64,000 nucleotides of DNA from an uncultured Holophagales bacterium (GTDB lineage: Bacteria; Acidobacteriota; Thermoanaerobaculia; Multivoradales; UBA5704), in NCBI GenBank assembly GCA_963842525.1, contig CAWJGT010000004.1, positions 64,001-128,000 on the forward strand, given 5' to 3'. Below are positions 21,052 to 53,000 of the stretch, piece by piece (within the stretch, counting starts at the first letter, position 1; each line of letters begins with the position of its first letter). The notes beneath the pieces were generated by a model. It was not told where the DNA came from and searched no databases. It saw only the letters and a program-made list of their open reading frames with translations. Both the position numbers and the translations under genes were made by a program.

Positions 21052-22464
21052 ATGAGCGACCCCCGTACGAACGAGAGCCTGCCGGGCGGCGGCGTCACGC
21101 GGCGCAGGTTCCTGCGCGGCTGCGCGGCCCTGGGCATGACCTCGCTCGCCTCGACCGTCTTCGACCTGCGGCGCATCGCCGCCGCGGCGCCGCTCGCCGG
21201 CGACTACAAGGCGCTGGTCTGCCTCTTCCTCTACGGCGGCAACGACAGCAACAACCTCGTGGTGCCGCGCGGGCCCGAGTACCCCGCCTATGCGGCGGCG
21301 CGCGGCAACCTGGCGCTTCCGCAGGCATTGCTGCGGCCGATCACGCCGCTCGCCGGCGACGGCCGGCAGTGGGGCCTCCACCCGAGCCTGGCCGGTCTCC
21401 AGGGGCTCTTCGCGCAGCGGCGGATGGCCCTGCTCGCCAACGTCGGCCCGCTGGTGGCGCCGGTCACCCGCGGCGAGATCGAGGCCGGCACGGCCGACCT
21501 GCCGCCCCAGCTCTTTTCGCACAGCGACCAGACCGTGCACTGGCAGACGGGCATCCCCGACCAGCCGGCGCGCAGCGGCTGGGGGGGACGGACCGCCGAC
21601 CTCCTGAACGCCCTCAATAGCTCTCAGGGGGGCTCGCAAGTCTCGATGTCCATGTCGCTCGCCGGCAACAACACGTTCCAGATCGGCTCGGCGGTGACGC
21701 AATACCAGGTCTCGCCGGACGGCAGCATCGGCCTGGGCTGGTACTACGACGGCAACGACTGGAACCATCCGCCGTCGATCGCCATCCGGCGCCTGCTGGC
21801 GCGCAGCTATGGAAACCTGTTCGAGAAGGGCTACCGCGACGTCTTCCAGCGCGCCCTGGACCAGGACCGCCTCCTGTCGGGCGCCCTGGACACGGCGCCG
21901 GCTCTCAACACCGCCTTCCCGGATACGCACCTCGGCCGGCAGATGCGGACGATCGCGCGGCTGATCTCGGTCCGGGAGACGCTCGGGCTGCGCCGGCAGG
22001 TCTTCTTCTGCGCCGCCGACGGCTACGACACCCACGGCGGCCAGATCGGCGGCCAGCCCGAGATCGGGGCCCACGCCGACCTCCTGACCGAGCTCGACGG
22101 CGCCCTCACAGCCTTCTACAACGCCACCGTCGAGCTCAGCGTAGCGAGCAGCGTGACCACCTTCACGGCGTCAGATTTCGGCCGTACCTACGTGAGCAAC
22201 GGCGACGGCTCCGACCACGGCTGGGGTGCCAACCACCTGATCGTCGGAGGTGCCGTCGACGGCGGGCGGATCTACGGCGACATGCCGATTCTGACAGTGG
22301 ACGGTCCTGATGACGTGGGGGAGGGCCGCTGGATCCCCACCACCTCGGTCGACGAGTACAGCGCCACCCTCGCCAGTTGGCTCGGAGTGGCCGCGAGCGA
22401 CCTGCCGCTCGTCCTGCCCAACCTGGGCCGGTTTTCCAATCCGGATCTGGGGTTCATGGTCTGA
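21052..22464 (+). CDS. DUF1501-family protein with Tat signal
   Basis: TRRRFL; DYKALVCLFLYGGNDSNN; LFSHSDQ; SDFGRT..SNGDGSDHGWG. Confidence 0.93.
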   Translation: MSDPRTNESLPGGGVTRRRFLRGCAALGMTSLASTVFDLRRIAAAAPLAGDYKALVCLFLYGGNDSNNLVVPRGPEYPAYAAARGNLALPQALLRPITPLAGDGRQWGLHPSLAGLQGLFAQRRMALLANVGPLVAPVTRGEIEAGTADLPPQLFSHSDQTVHWQTGIPDQPARSGWGGRTADLLNALNSSQGGSQVSMSMSLAGNNTFQIGSAVTQYQVSPDGSIGLGWYYDGNDWNHPPSIAIRRLLARSYGNLFEKGYRDVFQRALDQDRLLSGALDTAPALNTAFPDTHLGRQMRTIARLISVRETLGLRRQVFFCAADGYDTHGGQIGGQPEIGAHADLLTELDGALTAFYNATVELSVASSVTTFTASDFGRTYVSNGDGSDHGWGANHLIVGGAVDGGRIYGDMPILTVDGPDDVGEGRWIPTTSVDEYSATLASWLGVAASDLPLVLPNLGRFSNPDLGFMV

Positions 22465-22484
22465 GGCCGGCCCGGCCGCGCGGC

Positions 22485-22624
22485 CCCTCACCCCCGACCC
22501 CTCTCCCACCCGCACTCCCTTCCCCCGGGAGAGGGGGGAAATGCACTGTCAGGAAACTCCTGGGTGGGGCTCCCCTCTCCCGGGCGGGTGTGAGTGCGGG
22601 TGGGAGAGGGGCTGGGGGTGAGGG
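22485..22624. repeat. REP-like long palindrome (CCCTCACCCC..CCTCTCCC ... GGGAGAGG..GGGGTGAGGG)
   Basis: Inverted arms visible directly; same family as 26972-27141, 46899-47051 and 52333-52577. Confidence 0.9.
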
Positions 22625-22631
22625 ACGACCA

Positions 22632-22668
22632 AACGAAAAGCCCCGGCCTCTTGCGAGACCGGGGCTTT
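22632..22668 (-). terminator. Intrinsic terminator (possibly bidirectional)
   Basis: Minus strand AAAGCCCCGGTCTC-GCAA-GAGGCCGGGGCTTTTCGTTT. Confidence 0.85.
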
Positions 22669-22754
22669 CGGGTCCGTTGTAGGTGGCGTTGGGATGGCCC
22701 CGCGTGTGGGGACGCGCCCTTCGGAAGCGCCTACGACGCTCGGAGGGAATCCCC

Positions 22755-22799
22755 TTACAGGGACGCCACCTCCATCAAACCGGGTTGGTAACTATCCAC
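22755..22799 (-). CDS. 14-aa micro-ORF MDSYQPGLMEVASL
   Basis: GTG start 7 nt after the AGGAGG of an extended Shine-Dalgarno; TAA stop. Confidence 0.45.
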   Translation of the reverse strand: MDSYQPGLMEVASL

Positions 22800-22934
22800 C
22801 GGATCACCTCCTTTCCAGGCGTGTCCCTCATCGGCGGGTCCCAACCCGCCCGGCTCCGTGGGCCGCCCGAAGCCTCTTGAGAGCCGCCGCGCAGCTCCCG
22901 ATCTTCGAGAGCCCGCGGACCGCGAGACGGCGTT

Positions 22935-22963
22935 AGTGTCGGGCATCCGGCGTCCCATGTCAA
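22935..22963 (-). promoter_or_regulatory. Sigma70-type promoter of the candidate small RNA
   Basis: Consensus -35 TTGACA (22963-22958), 17-bp spacer, -10 GACACT (22940-22935). Confidence 0.6.
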
Positions 22964-23682
22964 CGAGCTTCCGCCGCCGCCTCGTCCCCCCTTTCCTTTT
23001 CCACCTGTCCTCGCCGTTGCAGCCGGATCGCCACGTTCCAGCAGAGCAGGGCCCAGCAGCCGCCCGCGGTCCAGCCGGCCAGCACGTCCGTCGGCCAGTG
23101 GACGCCCAGGTAGACGCGGGTCAGGCCGACCATCAGCGTGAGGAGGATGGCAAAGCCGAGCAGGTAGGCTTTCAGGCGCCGCCGTTTCTGGGCCCGCGCC
23201 AGCAGGGCACCCAGGGTCAGATAGGTGGCCGCCGCCGACGTGGAGTGCGCGCTGGGAAAGCTCGTCGTCACCACGCGGACCGCATGCGGCACCAGCATCG
23301 GCCGGGGGCGCTGGAACGCCTCCTTGAGCAGGAAGCCGGTGCCGATCCCGCCGCCGACGGCCAATAGAAGGAGGAGGGCCAGCCGCGCCTTGTGGTCCAG
23401 CACCAGGAACCCGGCGACCGCCAGGGTCAGGATCGACAAGACCACCGTGCTGCCCAGGGCCGTGATGTCGCGCGCCGCCACCTCCACCCACTGCGGACCG
23501 AGCGGGTCGGCCGGGTTGCCCCGCTCGCGCAGGGCGAGCATCAGGGACCGGTCGAACACGTTCGTCTCCCCCTCCCGCACCTCGCCGGCCAGCGCCAGGA
23601 GGCCCCAGATCCCGCCGGCCAGCAGGATCAGGAGGAGCAGGGGGCCGAGCTCACGGCGGGCGAGAAGGGTCCACGGCTTCAT
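22960..23682 (-). CDS. PAP2-family membrane phosphatase
   Basis: K.AFQRPRP, SFPSAH, TRVYLGVHWPTDVLAGW. Start taken at MKPWTLL. Confidence 0.92.
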   Translation of the reverse strand: MKPWTLLARRELGPLLLLILLAGGIWGLLALAGEVREGETNVFDRSLMLALRERGNPADPLGPQWVEVAARDITALGSTVVLSILTLAVAGFLVLDHKARLALLLLLAVGGGIGTGFLLKEAFQRPRPMLVPHAVRVVTTSFPSAHSTSAAATYLTLGALLARAQKRRRLKAYLLGFAILLTLMVGLTRVYLGVHWPTDVLAGWTAGGCWALLCWNVAIRLQRRGQVEKERGDEAAAEAR

Positions 23683-23809
23683 GGCGGCAGGTTGTTTGCA
23701 AGCTTCGCACCGGGCAAGCTCCACCGGAGCCATGGAACGGTGGCTGTGGTACCCTTCCGCTGCCTCAAACCGGCCGCAAGCAAAGACATTTTTTCTACCT
23801 GGAGGGTGG

Positions 23810-24760
23810 ATGAAGAAGATCGGAATCCTGTTCGGCCAGGAGGACACGTTCCCCTGGGCCCTCGTCGACCGGATCAACCGCAAGGACGTGGACGGCATCA
23901 CCGCCGAGCCGGTGCGCATCGACAAGGTCGTCCAGGGAGAGCCCACCGACTATGCGGTTGTCTTCGACCGCATCTCCCAGGACGTGCCCTTCTACCGCGC
24001 CTGGCTCAAGAACGCGGCCCTGAACGGCACGGCCGTCGTCAACAACCCCTTCTGGTGGAGCGCCGACGAGAAGTTCTTCAACAACTGTCTGGCGACCAAG
24101 CTCGGCGTGGCCGTGCCCAAGACCGTGCTGCTCCCCTCGTACGAGCGTCCGCCGGACACCGGCGAGAATTCGTTCCGCAACCTGGCCTATCCGCTGGACT
24201 GGGAAGGTATTTTCGACTACATCGGCTGGCCGGCCTTCTTCAAGCCGTTCGCCGGCGGCGGCTGGAAGAACGTCTACAAACTGCACGACCCCGAGGAGTT
24301 CTTCCGCGTCTATAGCGAGACCGGCGAGCTCGTGATGATGCTCCAGGAGGAGATCGACTTCACCGAGTACTTCCGGTGCTATTCCGTCGACTGCCGCGAC
24401 GTGAAGATCATGCAGTACGATCCCCGCGCCTATTTCCACCAGCGGTATGTGCGCGACGGGCCGCCGGTGCGGCAGGAGCTGCTCGACCGCATGCACGAGG
24501 ACGTGCTCAAGCTCAATCGCGGCCTGGGATACGACTTCAACACCGTCGAGCTGGCGGTGCGCGACGGCATACCCTACGCGATCGACTTCTGCAATCCGGC
24601 GCCGGACGCGGACGTCAAGTCGGTGGGCGAGGACAACTTCGAGTGGGTCGTCGAGACGGTGGCCAACATGGCGATCCGCAAGGCGCAGGCCTACGTCGAA
24701 GGGCAGAACAACCTGACCTGGGGCGAGTTCGTGCGCTCCTACGCGGCGGACGTGCGCTAA
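23810..24760 (+). CDS. RimK-like ATP-grasp ligase
   Basis: MKKIGILFGQE, NNPFWWSADEKF, FFKPFAGGGWKNVY, MLQEEI, TVELAVRDGIPYAIDFCNPAPD; RBS GGAGG. Confidence 0.88.
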   Translation: MKKIGILFGQEDTFPWALVDRINRKDVDGITAEPVRIDKVVQGEPTDYAVVFDRISQDVPFYRAWLKNAALNGTAVVNNPFWWSADEKFFNNCLATKLGVAVPKTVLLPSYERPPDTGENSFRNLAYPLDWEGIFDYIGWPAFFKPFAGGGWKNVYKLHDPEEFFRVYSETGELVMMLQEEIDFTEYFRCYSVDCRDVKIMQYDPRAYFHQRYVRDGPPVRQELLDRMHEDVLKLNRGLGYDFNTVELAVRDGIPYAIDFCNPAPDADVKSVGEDNFEWVVETVANMAIRKAQAYVEGQNNLTWGEFVRSYAADVR

Positions 24761-50008: not shown

Positions 50009-53000
50009 ATGCCCCGTAATCTGCCGTTTGCCGCACCCCTTTCCCTGACCGACCTGATCGACGAGCTGGGCCGGGATGCGAAGCTGGGGCCGCAGATCGT
50101 GCATGCGGCCTATCTGCCGGGGAGCGAGCCGCAATATGGAGAGCTGGACCCGCCGCTGCCGGAGCCGCTGGCGCGGGCAGTGGCCGCGGGCGGGGTGCCA
50201 CGCCTGTGGAGCCATCAGGCGGAGGGGATCGCGGCGGTGCGGCGGGGGGAGAGCGTCCTCATCACGACGCCGACCGCGTCGGGCAAGTCGCTCGTCTTTC
50301 AGCTCCCGGTGCTCGAAGAGGCCGCGCGCGGCGGCCCGGGGCACGGGCTGTTCCTCTTCCCCCTGAAGGCCCTGGGACAGGACCAGCGGGGCAAGCTCGT
50401 CCGCCTCGCCGAGGCGGCCGGCCTGTCGCCCGAGGTGGCGGGCTGCGAGATCTACGACGGCGACACGCCCACGGCCAAGCGGGCGGAGATCCGCAAGCAG
50501 TTCCCGCGGGTGGTGATCTCCAACCCGGACATGCTCCATCTGGGCGTGCTCGGCTCGTGGACCAACTGGGGGCCGTTCCTGGCCGACCTGCGCTGGATCG
50601 TGCTCGACGAGCTGCACACCTACCGCGGTATCTTCGGCAGCCATTTCCATCACGTCCTGCAGCGGCTGCTGCGCCTCTGCCGCTCGGTCGGCGGCGACCC
50701 GGTGCTGATCGCCTCGTCGGCCACGGCGGCCAACGCCGCGGAATTCGCCGAAACGCTGGCGGGCCGGCCGTTCCGTTGGATCACCGAATCGGGGGCGCCG
50801 CGCGAAGGACGGCACTTCCTCCTCTTCCGGCCGGAGGCGAGCCCATACACGCTGACGCTGCAGCTCTTTACGCGGCTCCTGCGGGCCGGCCTCAAGACGA
50901 TCGTGTTCACCAAGGCGCGGCGGATCACCGAGCTGCTCTATTCCTGGCTGCGCCGGGAGGACCCGGACCTCGCCGCCAGGGTGGCGAGCTACCGCGCGGG
51001 CTTCCTTCCCGAGGAGCGGCGGCGCATCGAGAAGTCGCTGTTCGAGGGCCGCCTCGCCGGGGTGATCTCCACGTCCGCCCTCGAGATGGGGATCGACGTG
51101 GGCGGGCTCGACGCCTGCATCCTGGTCGGCTATCCCGGCAGCATGATGGCGACCTGGCAGCGCTCGGGCCGGGTGGGACGTTCGGGGAAGGAGTCGGTCA
51201 CCGCCCTGGTGGCCCTGCCGGACGCGCTCGATCAGTTCTTCCTGGACCACCCCGACCAGTTCCTGGAACGCCCCTGCGAGCGGCTGGTGGTCGATCCGGA
51301 CAACGACCCGGTCTCCCGCGCTCATCTGGTGTGCGCCGCGTCCGAGCTGCCGCTCTGCCGGACGGAGGATCAGACCTATCTGGAGAGGCATGCGCCGCGG
51401 GTCGCGTCGCTCCTCTCCGAGGGGCATCTGCGCGAGTCGGCCGACGGCGCGGACCTTTATTCCGTGCGCCGGCGCCCGCAGAGGAGCATCAACCTGCGGG
51501 GGACCGGGGCTCAGTTCGCCATCCTGGACCAGAGCCGGAGCGGAGTGACGATCGGCACGATCGACGGGGTGCGGGTGCTGCACGAGTGCCACCCCGGGGC
51601 GGTCTACCTCCATGCCGGCCGGCAGTTCCTGATCCAGGATCTGGACCGCGAGAAGCGCCGTGTGCTGGCGACCGGCGCCGACCTCGACTATTTCACCAGC
51701 CCGCTCACCGAGAAGGAGACGGAGATCCTGGAGACCCTGCGGGAGCGGACGGACGGCCCGCTGCGCGCCGGGCTGGGGCGGCTCAAGGTGACCGAGCGGG
51801 TGGTGGGCTACGAGCGCAAGCGCATTCACGGCCAGGAGACGATCGACCAGCACCCGCTGGACCTGCCGCCTGTGGAATTCGAGACGGTCGGCCTCTGGTG
51901 GGAGGCCCCCCGCGAGGTGGAGGAGACGCTGCGGCGCCAGGGGGAGCACTTCATGGGCTCGCTCCACGCCTCGGAGCATGCGGCCATCTCGCTCTTCCCC
52001 TTGCTCGCCCTCTGTGACCGGATGGACATCGGAGGGATCTCCTACTCGTTCCACCCGCAGATCGGCAGCGGTGCGGTGTTCGTGTACGACGGCCATCCCG
52101 GGGGCGTAGGAATCGCGGCGCGCGGCTTCGCGGATCTGCCCGAGCTGCTGCGGCAGGTGCAGGTGCTGATCGAAGGGTGCGACTGCGAGGAGGGCTGCCC
52201 CTCCTGCATCCAGTCGCCCAAGTGCGGCAACGGCAACCGGCCGCTGCACAAGGCCGGGGCCGCGCGGGCGCTGCGGCTGCTGTTGGGGATGGAGGAGCCG
52301 GTGATCCCGTGGGGAGAGTTTCCGGAGGTGGGCCCTCACCCCCCGGCCCCCTCTCCCATCCTCACTCCCACCCTACCGGGAGAGGGGGAGATGGCCATCG
52401 GAGAGGGTGGTGTGAGGGAAGAGCCCCAAAGGGGCGTCGGCATAAAGCCTGGGGTTTCAACCCCAGGACAGCGGCCCGTTTTCATCTCAAGCCCCGAAGG
52501 GGCGTCGGAAACCATTCCCCCCTCTCCCGGGGGGGTGGGAGGGCGGATGGGAGAGGGGGGCCAGGGGGGTGAGGGGTCCGACCTCGACGTCGACCCGCGC
52601 GACGTGGAGGTCTGGCTCGTGCCGGGGCCGGAGCCGCGCCGGTTCGAGCGTGCTCCCGCGGTGGCGACCGGTCTGCCGCGCACGATCCTCTTCGACCTGG
52701 AGACCCTGCGCTCGGCTGCGGATGTGGGCGGGTGGCGCAAGGTCCACCGCATGGGGGTGGCCGTCGGCGTCGCTTGTCATCTGGAGGAGGGGCGCTTCGA
52801 AATCTTTTCCGAGACCCGGGTGCGCGATCTCTGCGAGCTGCTGCGCAGCGCCACGCTGGTGATCGGCTTCAACATCAAGCGGTTCGACTACCGCGTCCTC
52901 TCCGGCTACACGGGCGAGGACTATGCGCGGCTGGTCCCCACGCTCGACCTCCTGGAGGACGTCTACGCGCGGGCGGGCTTCCGGATCGGGATGGGGCACC

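Follow-up and report, generated by a model that had tools for sequence, protein, structure and literature searches.

Locus and element

The window analysed here is a stretch of 64,000 nucleotides (nt) from an uncultured Holophagales bacterium (Acidobacteriota; Thermoanaerobaculia; Multivoradales; UBA5704; assembly GCA_963842525.1, contig CAWJGT010000004.1, positions 64,001 to 128,000). Its minus strand carries a 334-nt element in which a promoter, several hairpins, an extended Shine-Dalgarno (SD) sequence, a GTG-started micro open reading frame (ORF), a 9-nt long-range pairing and a terminator are combined (Table 1). All of these parts had been described, at the same positions, in an earlier note made from the letters of the sequence, which proposed an unannotated stand-alone small RNA (sRNA) or micropeptide gene. 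The proposal stands: the gene has a conserved promoter and terminator, is present as a single copy without conserved neighbours, has covarying helices and keeps its ORF in frame. Along the lines of checking that the note had laid out, related genomes yielded conserved homologues with SD, short ORF and terminator, pair counting over 49 sequences found covarying helices, the frame was kept in 49 of 49 homologues, and cmscan against Rfam brought no family to its threshold at the element. The element is a real, conserved, unannotated single-copy gene, and it is probably expressed.

Table 1. Features of the element and its neighbours. Pairs changed on both sides and cells paired are counted in the alignment of homologues.
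Feature	Position	Strand	Description	Pairs changed on both sides	Cells paired
-35 box	22963-22958	minus	TTGACA; overlaps the TGA stop of the upstream PAP2-family gene		
-10 box	22940-22935	minus	GACACT; 17-nt spacer from the -35 box; cAnnAT-like box at fixed spacing in homologues		
P1	22887..22918	minus	Variable 5′ hairpin at or near the RNA 5′ end	7/9	
P2	22851..22886	minus	Helix CGGCUCU/GGAGCCG around the conserved UUGGGCGGCC loop region	5/7 (outer pairs)	98.0%
P3	22850-22833	minus	Hairpin GGCGGG-UUGGGA-CCCGCC (GGCGGGTTGGGACCCGCC)	5/6	96.6%
P4 (SD hairpin)	22801..22827	minus	GGGACACGCC pairs with the SD 3′ half (GGUGAUCC); SD 5′ half (GGAAA) in the loop	0/8	89.0%
Extended SD	22815-22801	minus	GAAAGGAGGTGATCC, followed by G, then GTG; with the extension 22799..22815		
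Micro-ORF	22799-22755	minus	GTG (22799-22797), 13 codons and TAA (22757-22755); product MDSYQPGLMEVASL		
Internal SD-like site	22767..22773	minus	GGAGGUG (E-V codons); nearly invariant among homologues		
P5, 5′ arm	22771-22763	minus	AGGUGGCGU (AGGTGGCGT), within the ORF; complementary to the 3′ arm	2/8 (both arms)	95.9%
Stop-codon hairpin	22762-22751	minus	Small hairpin presenting the stop codon in its loop		
3′ domain	22690..22754	minus	GCGUC/GGCGC hairpin, CCCC/GGGG hairpin and conserved ACCCAAC		
P5, 3′ arm	22689-22681	minus	ACGCCACCU (ACGCCACCT); closes the 3′ domain		
Intrinsic terminator	22668-22631	minus	GC-rich stem and U-run (T-run)	9/11	89.6%
PAP2-family gene	22960-23946	minus	Upstream neighbour; its TGA stop sits inside the -35 hexamer		
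DUF1501 protein gene	21052-22464	plus	Downstream neighbour, convergent		

Support for the promoter comes from conservation: TTGAC is kept in 20 of 20 aligned homologues from the same order, with a -10-like box at constant spacing. A simple promoter scan picked up no site at the element because GACACT agrees with TATAAT at 3 of 6 positions only, too weak for the rule of the scan.

Pairing with the 16S rRNA tail

The genome has two rRNA operons, and its own 16S gene ends in CTGGATCACCTCCTTTCT. The SD therefore makes 15 perfect pairs with the 16S tail, extended by a G.U and a G-C pair to 17 contiguous pairs, and the last base paired is the first G of the GTG start codon. The duplex is predicted to have an energy of -32.7 kcal/mol; a canonical AAGGAGG site would have -11.6 kcal/mol.

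This complement is far beyond chance. Genome-wide, 119 sites have perfect runs of at least 11 nt against the 18-nt 16S tail, and runs of at least 15 nt are found at four non-rRNA sites only, each followed at SD distance by an ORF (14, 17, 18 and 18 codons). Most runs of 12-14 nt read GAGGTGATCCAG and had no start codon nearby in the genome scan; we take them to lie within coding sequence. The 9.95-Mb genome contains the 14-mer AAAGGAGGTGATCC six times and lacks its reversed control; two of the six occurrences are the antisense of 16S 3′ ends, and the element is among the other four.

Three more micro-ORFs in this genome follow a perfect 16S-tail complement of 15-16 nt, there continued by C and then ATG. 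They lie on contig C3 near 1249544 and on contig C11 near 212912 and 213019, and their products are MKIRSNLKAGNFVNPNV, MKIRTNVKAGTENIVWGT and MKVRTNVKAGDENIVWSV, the last two encoded in tandem, 107 nt apart. Neighbouring genes encode an ankyrin-repeat protein, a metallo-beta-lactamase-fold protein and purine-synthesis enzymes; peptide-maturation enzymes were not found among the neighbours of these other extended-SD micro-ORFs.

The 18-nt 16S tail was identical in five of the five relatives checked. In most same-family relatives the SD reads GGUGGUCC, giving a G.U pair with the 16S tail and a C-G pair in hairpin P4; in the window it reads GGUGAUCC, giving A-U with the tail and a C.A mismatch in P4. 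Most relatives reach 18 pairs with the tail, one G.U among them, and one homologue from Candidatus Krumholzibacteriia reaches 16 perfect pairs.

The micro-ORF

The 49 homologues, 43 of them with distinct variable regions, all have the ORF open and in frame. From the start codon to the conserved GAGGUGGC the distance is 24, 27, 30 or 33 nt (in 4, 38, 4 and 3 sequences, respectively), so that indels amount to 3, 6 or 9 nt, and the variable part contains no stop codons in frame, against 28 and 46 in the two other frames. Translation starts are GTG in 47 sequences and TTG in two; stops are TAA in 26 and TAG in 23, and fall at the aligned position in 48 of the 49, one codon later in the remaining one. 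Judged from this alignment, the reading frame is clearly under selection to stay open.

The peptides have 13-16 amino acids (aa) and the pattern M-x(4-7)-G-L-x-E-V-A-S/A-x. There is free variation at residues 2-6, at the N-terminus; the codons conserved at the C-terminus (GAG GUG GCG) double as an arm of P5. Selection is therefore clear for translation and not for the peptide sequence.

The E-V codons hold the internal SD-like site, with a GGAGG core that ends 11 nt ahead of the stop codon, or 8 nt ahead of the last sense codon. By its spacing the site suits the anti-SD of a ribosome that is terminating. We looked for an SD-like pentamer (GGAGG, GAGGT or AGGAG) 5-14 nt before the stop codon in the 113 micro-ORFs among the public loci listed by the pattern scan described below, and found one in 44 (39%), against 4.4% of mononucleotide shuffles. 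By peptide type the counts were 7/7 for the Acidobacteriota/Krumholzibacteriia types, 20/34 for RreR-like, 13/44 for CC2171-like, 1/8 for RreB-like, 0/6 for the MRY type and 3/14 for others. At least three unrelated peptide types thus have the pentamer, and these counts overstate independence because the loci are related to one another; we regard the recurring site near the stop as a lead, not a result.

RNA fold and covariation

Folding of the 306-nt RNA yields -166.8 kcal/mol, compared with -140.05 ± 5.95 kcal/mol for shuffled sequences (z -4.5; none of 100 as low). An RNAalifold consensus was computed on the alignment of 49 homologues and evaluated by pair counting against 500 shuffles and slid controls. 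In the consensus fold 87.5% of cells are paired (82.2% in shuffles) and 42 of 68 pairs are changed on both sides (shuffle mean 25.6). None of the 500 shuffles reaches it on any of five measures, and slid controls do not exceed 50.3% of cells paired or 25 pairs changed on both sides.

By this count four helices covary (Table 1). In the long-range pairing P5, which the earlier note had picked out, the compensated pairs are G-C to A-U in three sequences and U-A to G-C in eight. In the SD hairpin the loop bases have a predicted unpaired probability of about 1.0, and its fourth pair covaries only partly, being paired in 27 of the 49 sequences.

A mutual-information search on the same alignment gave no convincing tertiary or pseudoknot pairs beyond the nested helices. 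Two candidate interactions were rejected: pairing of the P3 loop GUUGGG with the conserved CCCAAC fits some sequences and fails in several, and an extension of P5 (GGUUUG with CAGACC) had weak support, with a mean best helix of 5.1 in cognate and 4.4 in cross pairs.

Distribution and genomic context

With the 334-nt stretch as BLAST query, a match was found in 29 of 41 genomes (40 relatives and the genome of the window), including 19 of 24 from the same family. Each has one strong match, and three of these genomes also have a short, weak second one. A wider sample of the phylum gave BLAST matches in 61 of 401 genomes. A covariance model of the core of the element (R1, built from a separate alignment and used at E<=1e-6) found exactly one copy in each of 24 of 151 sampled genomes of the phylum, distributed in an all-or-none manner by family (e.g. 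5/5, 6/6 and 2/2, as against 0/8 and 0/10). The genome sets are samples, in which the lack of a match means that the element was not found there.

Among public records, one labelled Acidobacteriota carries a close homologue, and two records from a different phylum, Candidatus Krumholzibacteriia, have the whole architecture, 5′ and 3′ domains included.

Synteny was not found beyond close relatives; the largest cluster of similar flanks comprises 6 of 34 loci. Matches to the PAP2-family neighbour are full or nearly full length at 3 of 20 loci, that of the window included, and at three more only the first ~46-56 residues match. At three loci where PAP2 is not matched in full, the RNA directly adjoins a divergent gene of unknown function, beyond which comes a GCS2-family gene.

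Matches in RNA libraries

In an index search the stretch was matched by metatranscriptomes from soil and rhizosphere only, and over small shares of its length. RNA contigs from four runs of four soil studies could be placed at 80% likeness. They are 204-342 nt long and cover the element only (22676-22968), with a summed depth of up to 140.7 (116.1 for a single contig) and flanks near zero; parts of the stretch without contig cover carry no weight. Three contigs from three studies end at 22914-22916, near the start of P1. An abundant small RNA would agree with the contigs as a whole, which do not prove it.

Comparison with known systems

According to the earlier note the element belongs to no named family. 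This stands as far as Rfam is concerned, where a scan at gathering thresholds gave no family at the element. It does not stand for the kind of gene, which has been described under the name of rre genes, and a named sRNA, CC2171, shares its SD and GUG.

The sole meaningful sub-threshold Rfam match is to CC2171 (RF01867), at 34 bits against a gathering score of 75 (E 8.7e-6). CC2171 is a Caulobacter sRNA confirmed by Northern blot in Methylorubrum, according to the accessible part of the report (bioRxiv 10.1101/2022.01.24.477521). Its consensus starts ...GAAAGGAGGUGAUCCAGUG, the same extended SD and GUG, and has a terminator at its end, and the match to the element runs from end to end (model positions 1-159). 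Almost all of the score comes from SD and terminator, and at 34 bits the element falls short of CC2171 membership. The two also differ in that ORFs of the CC2171 type have 21-25 codons (MSHCHQPRS...) with no 5′ domain. A second RF01867 match in the genome (contig C25, 24.8 bits) lies inside a coding region and was discarded.

The closer parallel is with rreB of Bradyrhizobiaceae and rreR of Rhodobacterales (Hahn et al., RNA Biol 2016, PMC5711450). From the accessible text of that paper, on which all we say of it is based, rreB is a 165-nt mRNA in which a 17-nt complement of the 16S tail, reaching onto the G of the GTG start, precedes a small ORF for 14 aa. It is found mostly in the ribosomal fraction and co-sediments with 30S, and only the first 5 nt of its complement are predicted to be single-stranded. 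Its long SD and GTG start make it weakly translated, and it is stabilised once the start codon is swapped for a stop; a very stable SD duplex impedes translation in E. coli as well as in rreB (PMC5711450). The suggestion that our micro-ORF might be very highly translated is doubtful.

Several traits are common to the element and rre genes. Each has a promoter and a terminator of its own, as a small stand-alone transcript would. Both have a 16-18-nt complement of the 16S tail whose last base is the G of GTG. Where rre genes call for at least 16 nt of complementarity, the element has 17 contiguous pairs; counted as strictly perfect pairs it has 15, one short. The small ORF is conserved within the clade at ~14-18 codons (peptides of 13-16 aa for the element), and in both the SD is predicted to be single-stranded in its 5′ part and held in a hairpin for the rest. 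Neither has a conserved genomic context across wider taxa.

In other traits they differ. The element is from a different phylum and its RNA is ~290 nt long rather than 165 nt. It has a conserved, covarying 5′ domain of ~115 nt (P1-P3), whereas the alpha-proteobacterial SD lies ~15-20 nt past the promoter, and the 3′ half of its SD pairs with upstream sequence, whereas that of rreB lies within the first stem-loop of the RNA. Its peptide (M-x5-G-L-x-E-V-A-S-S) is unlike MSxxKRCHLAGIAR and MSRxxLERGVGT..., the RreB and RreR types, which we read from genome loci (Afipia broomeae ATCC 49717 and Dinoroseobacter) rather than from the paper. By its sequence, then, the element has the defining anatomy of rre genes with no detectable homology to those described, and it lies outside CC2171.

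In the accessible text, rre genes are reported only from four alpha-proteobacterial orders, and Supplementary Fig. S1 may list further taxa (PMC5711450). Our literature search on rre genes and extended SDs found no extension beyond those orders, and one that combined Acidobacteria with small ORFs, Shine-Dalgarno and sRNA found nothing. The portions of recent extended-SD papers that could be consulted do not mention rre genes.

A scan of public genomes for the pattern RAAGGAGGTGRTCCAGTG returned at least 120 loci. In 113 of the 120 loci listed, a complete ORF of no more than 27 codons starts at the GTG; six have longer ORFs, and one is cut by a contig end. The peptide types among the loci listed include an RreR-like one of 18 aa, a CC2171-like one of 21-25 aa, and an RreB-like one of 14 aa that takes in Afipia broomeae ATCC 49717, the strain named in the Fig. 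2 legend of PMC5711450. A 6-aa type (MRYGLR) comes from Acidiferrales and other Acidobacteriota, Cys-containing types of 11-16 aa from Phycisphaerae, Pirellulales, Kolteria and other Planctomycetota, and the element's own type from Acidobacteriota and Krumholzibacteriia; Gemmatimonadota and Burkholderiales records give single matches. The loci in Planctomycetota/Phycisphaerae appear, from their sequences, to have structured 5′ domains of their own. The longer ORFs among the loci listed include one of 82-83 aa in two Flavobacteriia records.

Model R1, run on 100 of the 120 loci listed, scored 146 and 113 bits on two of its training members and 31.5 bits on the next best. The scan suggests separate families of extended-SD micro-ORFs in Acidobacteriota, Krumholzibacteriota, Planctomycetota/Phycisphaerae and alpha-proteobacteria.

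Interpretation and alternatives

The element is, in our judgement, probably an rre-like ribosome-docking small mRNA, with a micro-ORF that is translated and a fold and lifetime that are coupled to 30S binding and translation. The observations behind this reading are the anatomy, its conservation, the covariation, the conserved frame and the presence in RNA libraries. That the RNA might bind 30S had been raised in the earlier note, and the idea fits what is reported of rreB, the only experimentally studied analogue (PMC5711450).

Such an RNA, of ~290 nt, would be made from its own sigma-70-like promoter and end at its own terminator. The 5′ half of the 17-18-nt anti-anti-SD, exposed in the loop of P4, would serve as a seed for the 16S 3′ tail, and pairing to the tail would then spread through the hairpin. 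A ribosome escaping the grip of the SD would read 13-16 codons, unwinding P5, which otherwise would lock the 3′ end of the ORF to the 3′ domain. It would terminate at the stop codon presented in a loop; the internal GGAGGUG is placed relative to the last sense codon as an SD would be. Both the fold of the RNA and its lifetime would thus be coupled to 30S availability and to translation, in the way shown for the stability of rreB.

The following points weigh against this reading. The SD hairpin P4 shows one-sided changes only, with none of its eight pairs compensatory, and in the window it is weakened by the C.A mismatch; one-sided changes are, though, what is expected because one strand is fixed by the 16S tail. 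R1 scores alpha-proteobacterial loci at 10.7-25.2 bits, where the SD alone brings ~11.8, and since no homology to rre genes is detectable beyond SD and GTG, the resemblance may be convergent. The RNA contigs are assemblies from relatives in mixed communities that do not show strand or true ends, and carry-over of DNA may be their source. Conservation of the peptide at its C-terminus may merely reflect RNA structure. For the element, 30S binding, translation and the coupling of the two are inferred, binding and coupling by analogy with rreB. Overproduction of rreB in Bradyrhizobium had no effect on growth in the text accessible to us, which calls rre function elusive (PMC5711450).

The alternative that survives best, which we nonetheless find unlikely, is an ordinary micropeptide gene, in which the peptide of 13-16 aa is the effector, and SD and RNA structure only tune its expression or stability. 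The frame kept throughout the homologues and the recurring G-L-x-E-V-A-S/A motif are in its favour, as is the fact that the three other 15-16-nt SD sites of the genome also precede micro-ORFs. The most conserved parts are non-coding, however (P2, P3 and the SD region are nearly invariant), residues 2-6 are free to vary, and those codons that are conserved also form a helix arm. For RreB and RreR, moreover, the accessible text describes synthetic peptides as unstructured and without phenotype (PMC5711450).

Somewhat less probable still is a purely non-coding sRNA that binds 30S or the 16S tail, as a sponge or assembly factor, with the ORF an accident of helix spacing. Strong RNA structure agrees with it, and so does the predicted duplex at -32.7 kcal/mol, a stability that impedes translation in E. 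coli and in rreB (PMC5711450). Such a view has to contend with the frame: indels come only in multiples of 3 nt, stops number 0 in frame versus 28 and 46 out of frame, the start is always GTG or TTG, and the stop always falls at the aligned place. This pattern of indels, stops and starts is not explained by chance spacing.

We think it very unlikely that the element acts in cis, be it as a leader-peptide attenuator for a downstream gene or as the 3′ untranslated region of the PAP2-family gene. The PAP2 stop does overlap the -35 box, and a short ORF in a structured RNA that ends in a terminator, with pairing that translation would remodel, is what leader-peptide attenuators such as trpL have. 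An attenuator also has a regulated gene downstream on the same strand; the DUF1501 gene is convergent and no downstream gene is conserved. The element differs further in lacking a run of regulatory codons and a terminator alternatively paired with the ORF region. A full or nearly full PAP2 match is present at only 3 of 20 loci, and flanks are conserved only in close relatives, while the element keeps its own promoter everywhere.

The type I toxin mRNA contemplated in the earlier note, for which the small ORF and the structured RNA that sequesters its ribosome-binding site might speak, is scarcely credible: the peptide and its 48 homologues have 13-16 aa, are acidic to polar and have no hydrophobic or membrane-spanning stretch, the gene is single copy, vertically conserved and in a non-mobile context, and no antisense partner was seen, although no experimental search for antisense RNA was made.

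The rre-like small mRNA that we favour can be taken further, to a proposal that we put forward as quite improbable. Here these RNAs would be ancient, multi-phylum 30S-docking riboregulators, in which P1-P3 would bind a ligand or protein and gate an 18-nt anti-anti-SD, so that free small subunits would be marked, titrated or quality-checked according to a physiological signal, while the micro-ORF and the second SD-like site would release or reset the ribosome.

The rre small mRNAs are among the strangest ribosome-binding sites known. In the element their hallmark turns up in a gene that is conserved, apparently expressed and from a distant phylum. It thus offers a second, independent system, along with a structured domain in which ligands or protein partners can be sought. 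A class of genes that is unannotated, and at present overlooked by genome annotation and by Rfam, also comes into view.

Other features of the window

ARAGORN and the Rfam models for transfer-messenger RNA (tmRNA) found no tRNA or tmRNA genes in the window. An Acido-Lenti-1 RNA (RF01687) was matched at 52422-52467 on the minus strand, with 42.6 bits against a gathering score of 37. Just past the terminator of the element lies a long palindrome (22484-22625) of two GC-rich arms of ~33 nt around a centre of ~73 nt. The palindrome belongs to a dispersed repeat, present in 118 near-full-length copies genome-wide and resembling a repetitive extragenic palindrome (REP) or a miniature inverted-repeat transposable element (MITE), and it gives rise to spurious microRNA matches when Rfam is run in E-value mode.

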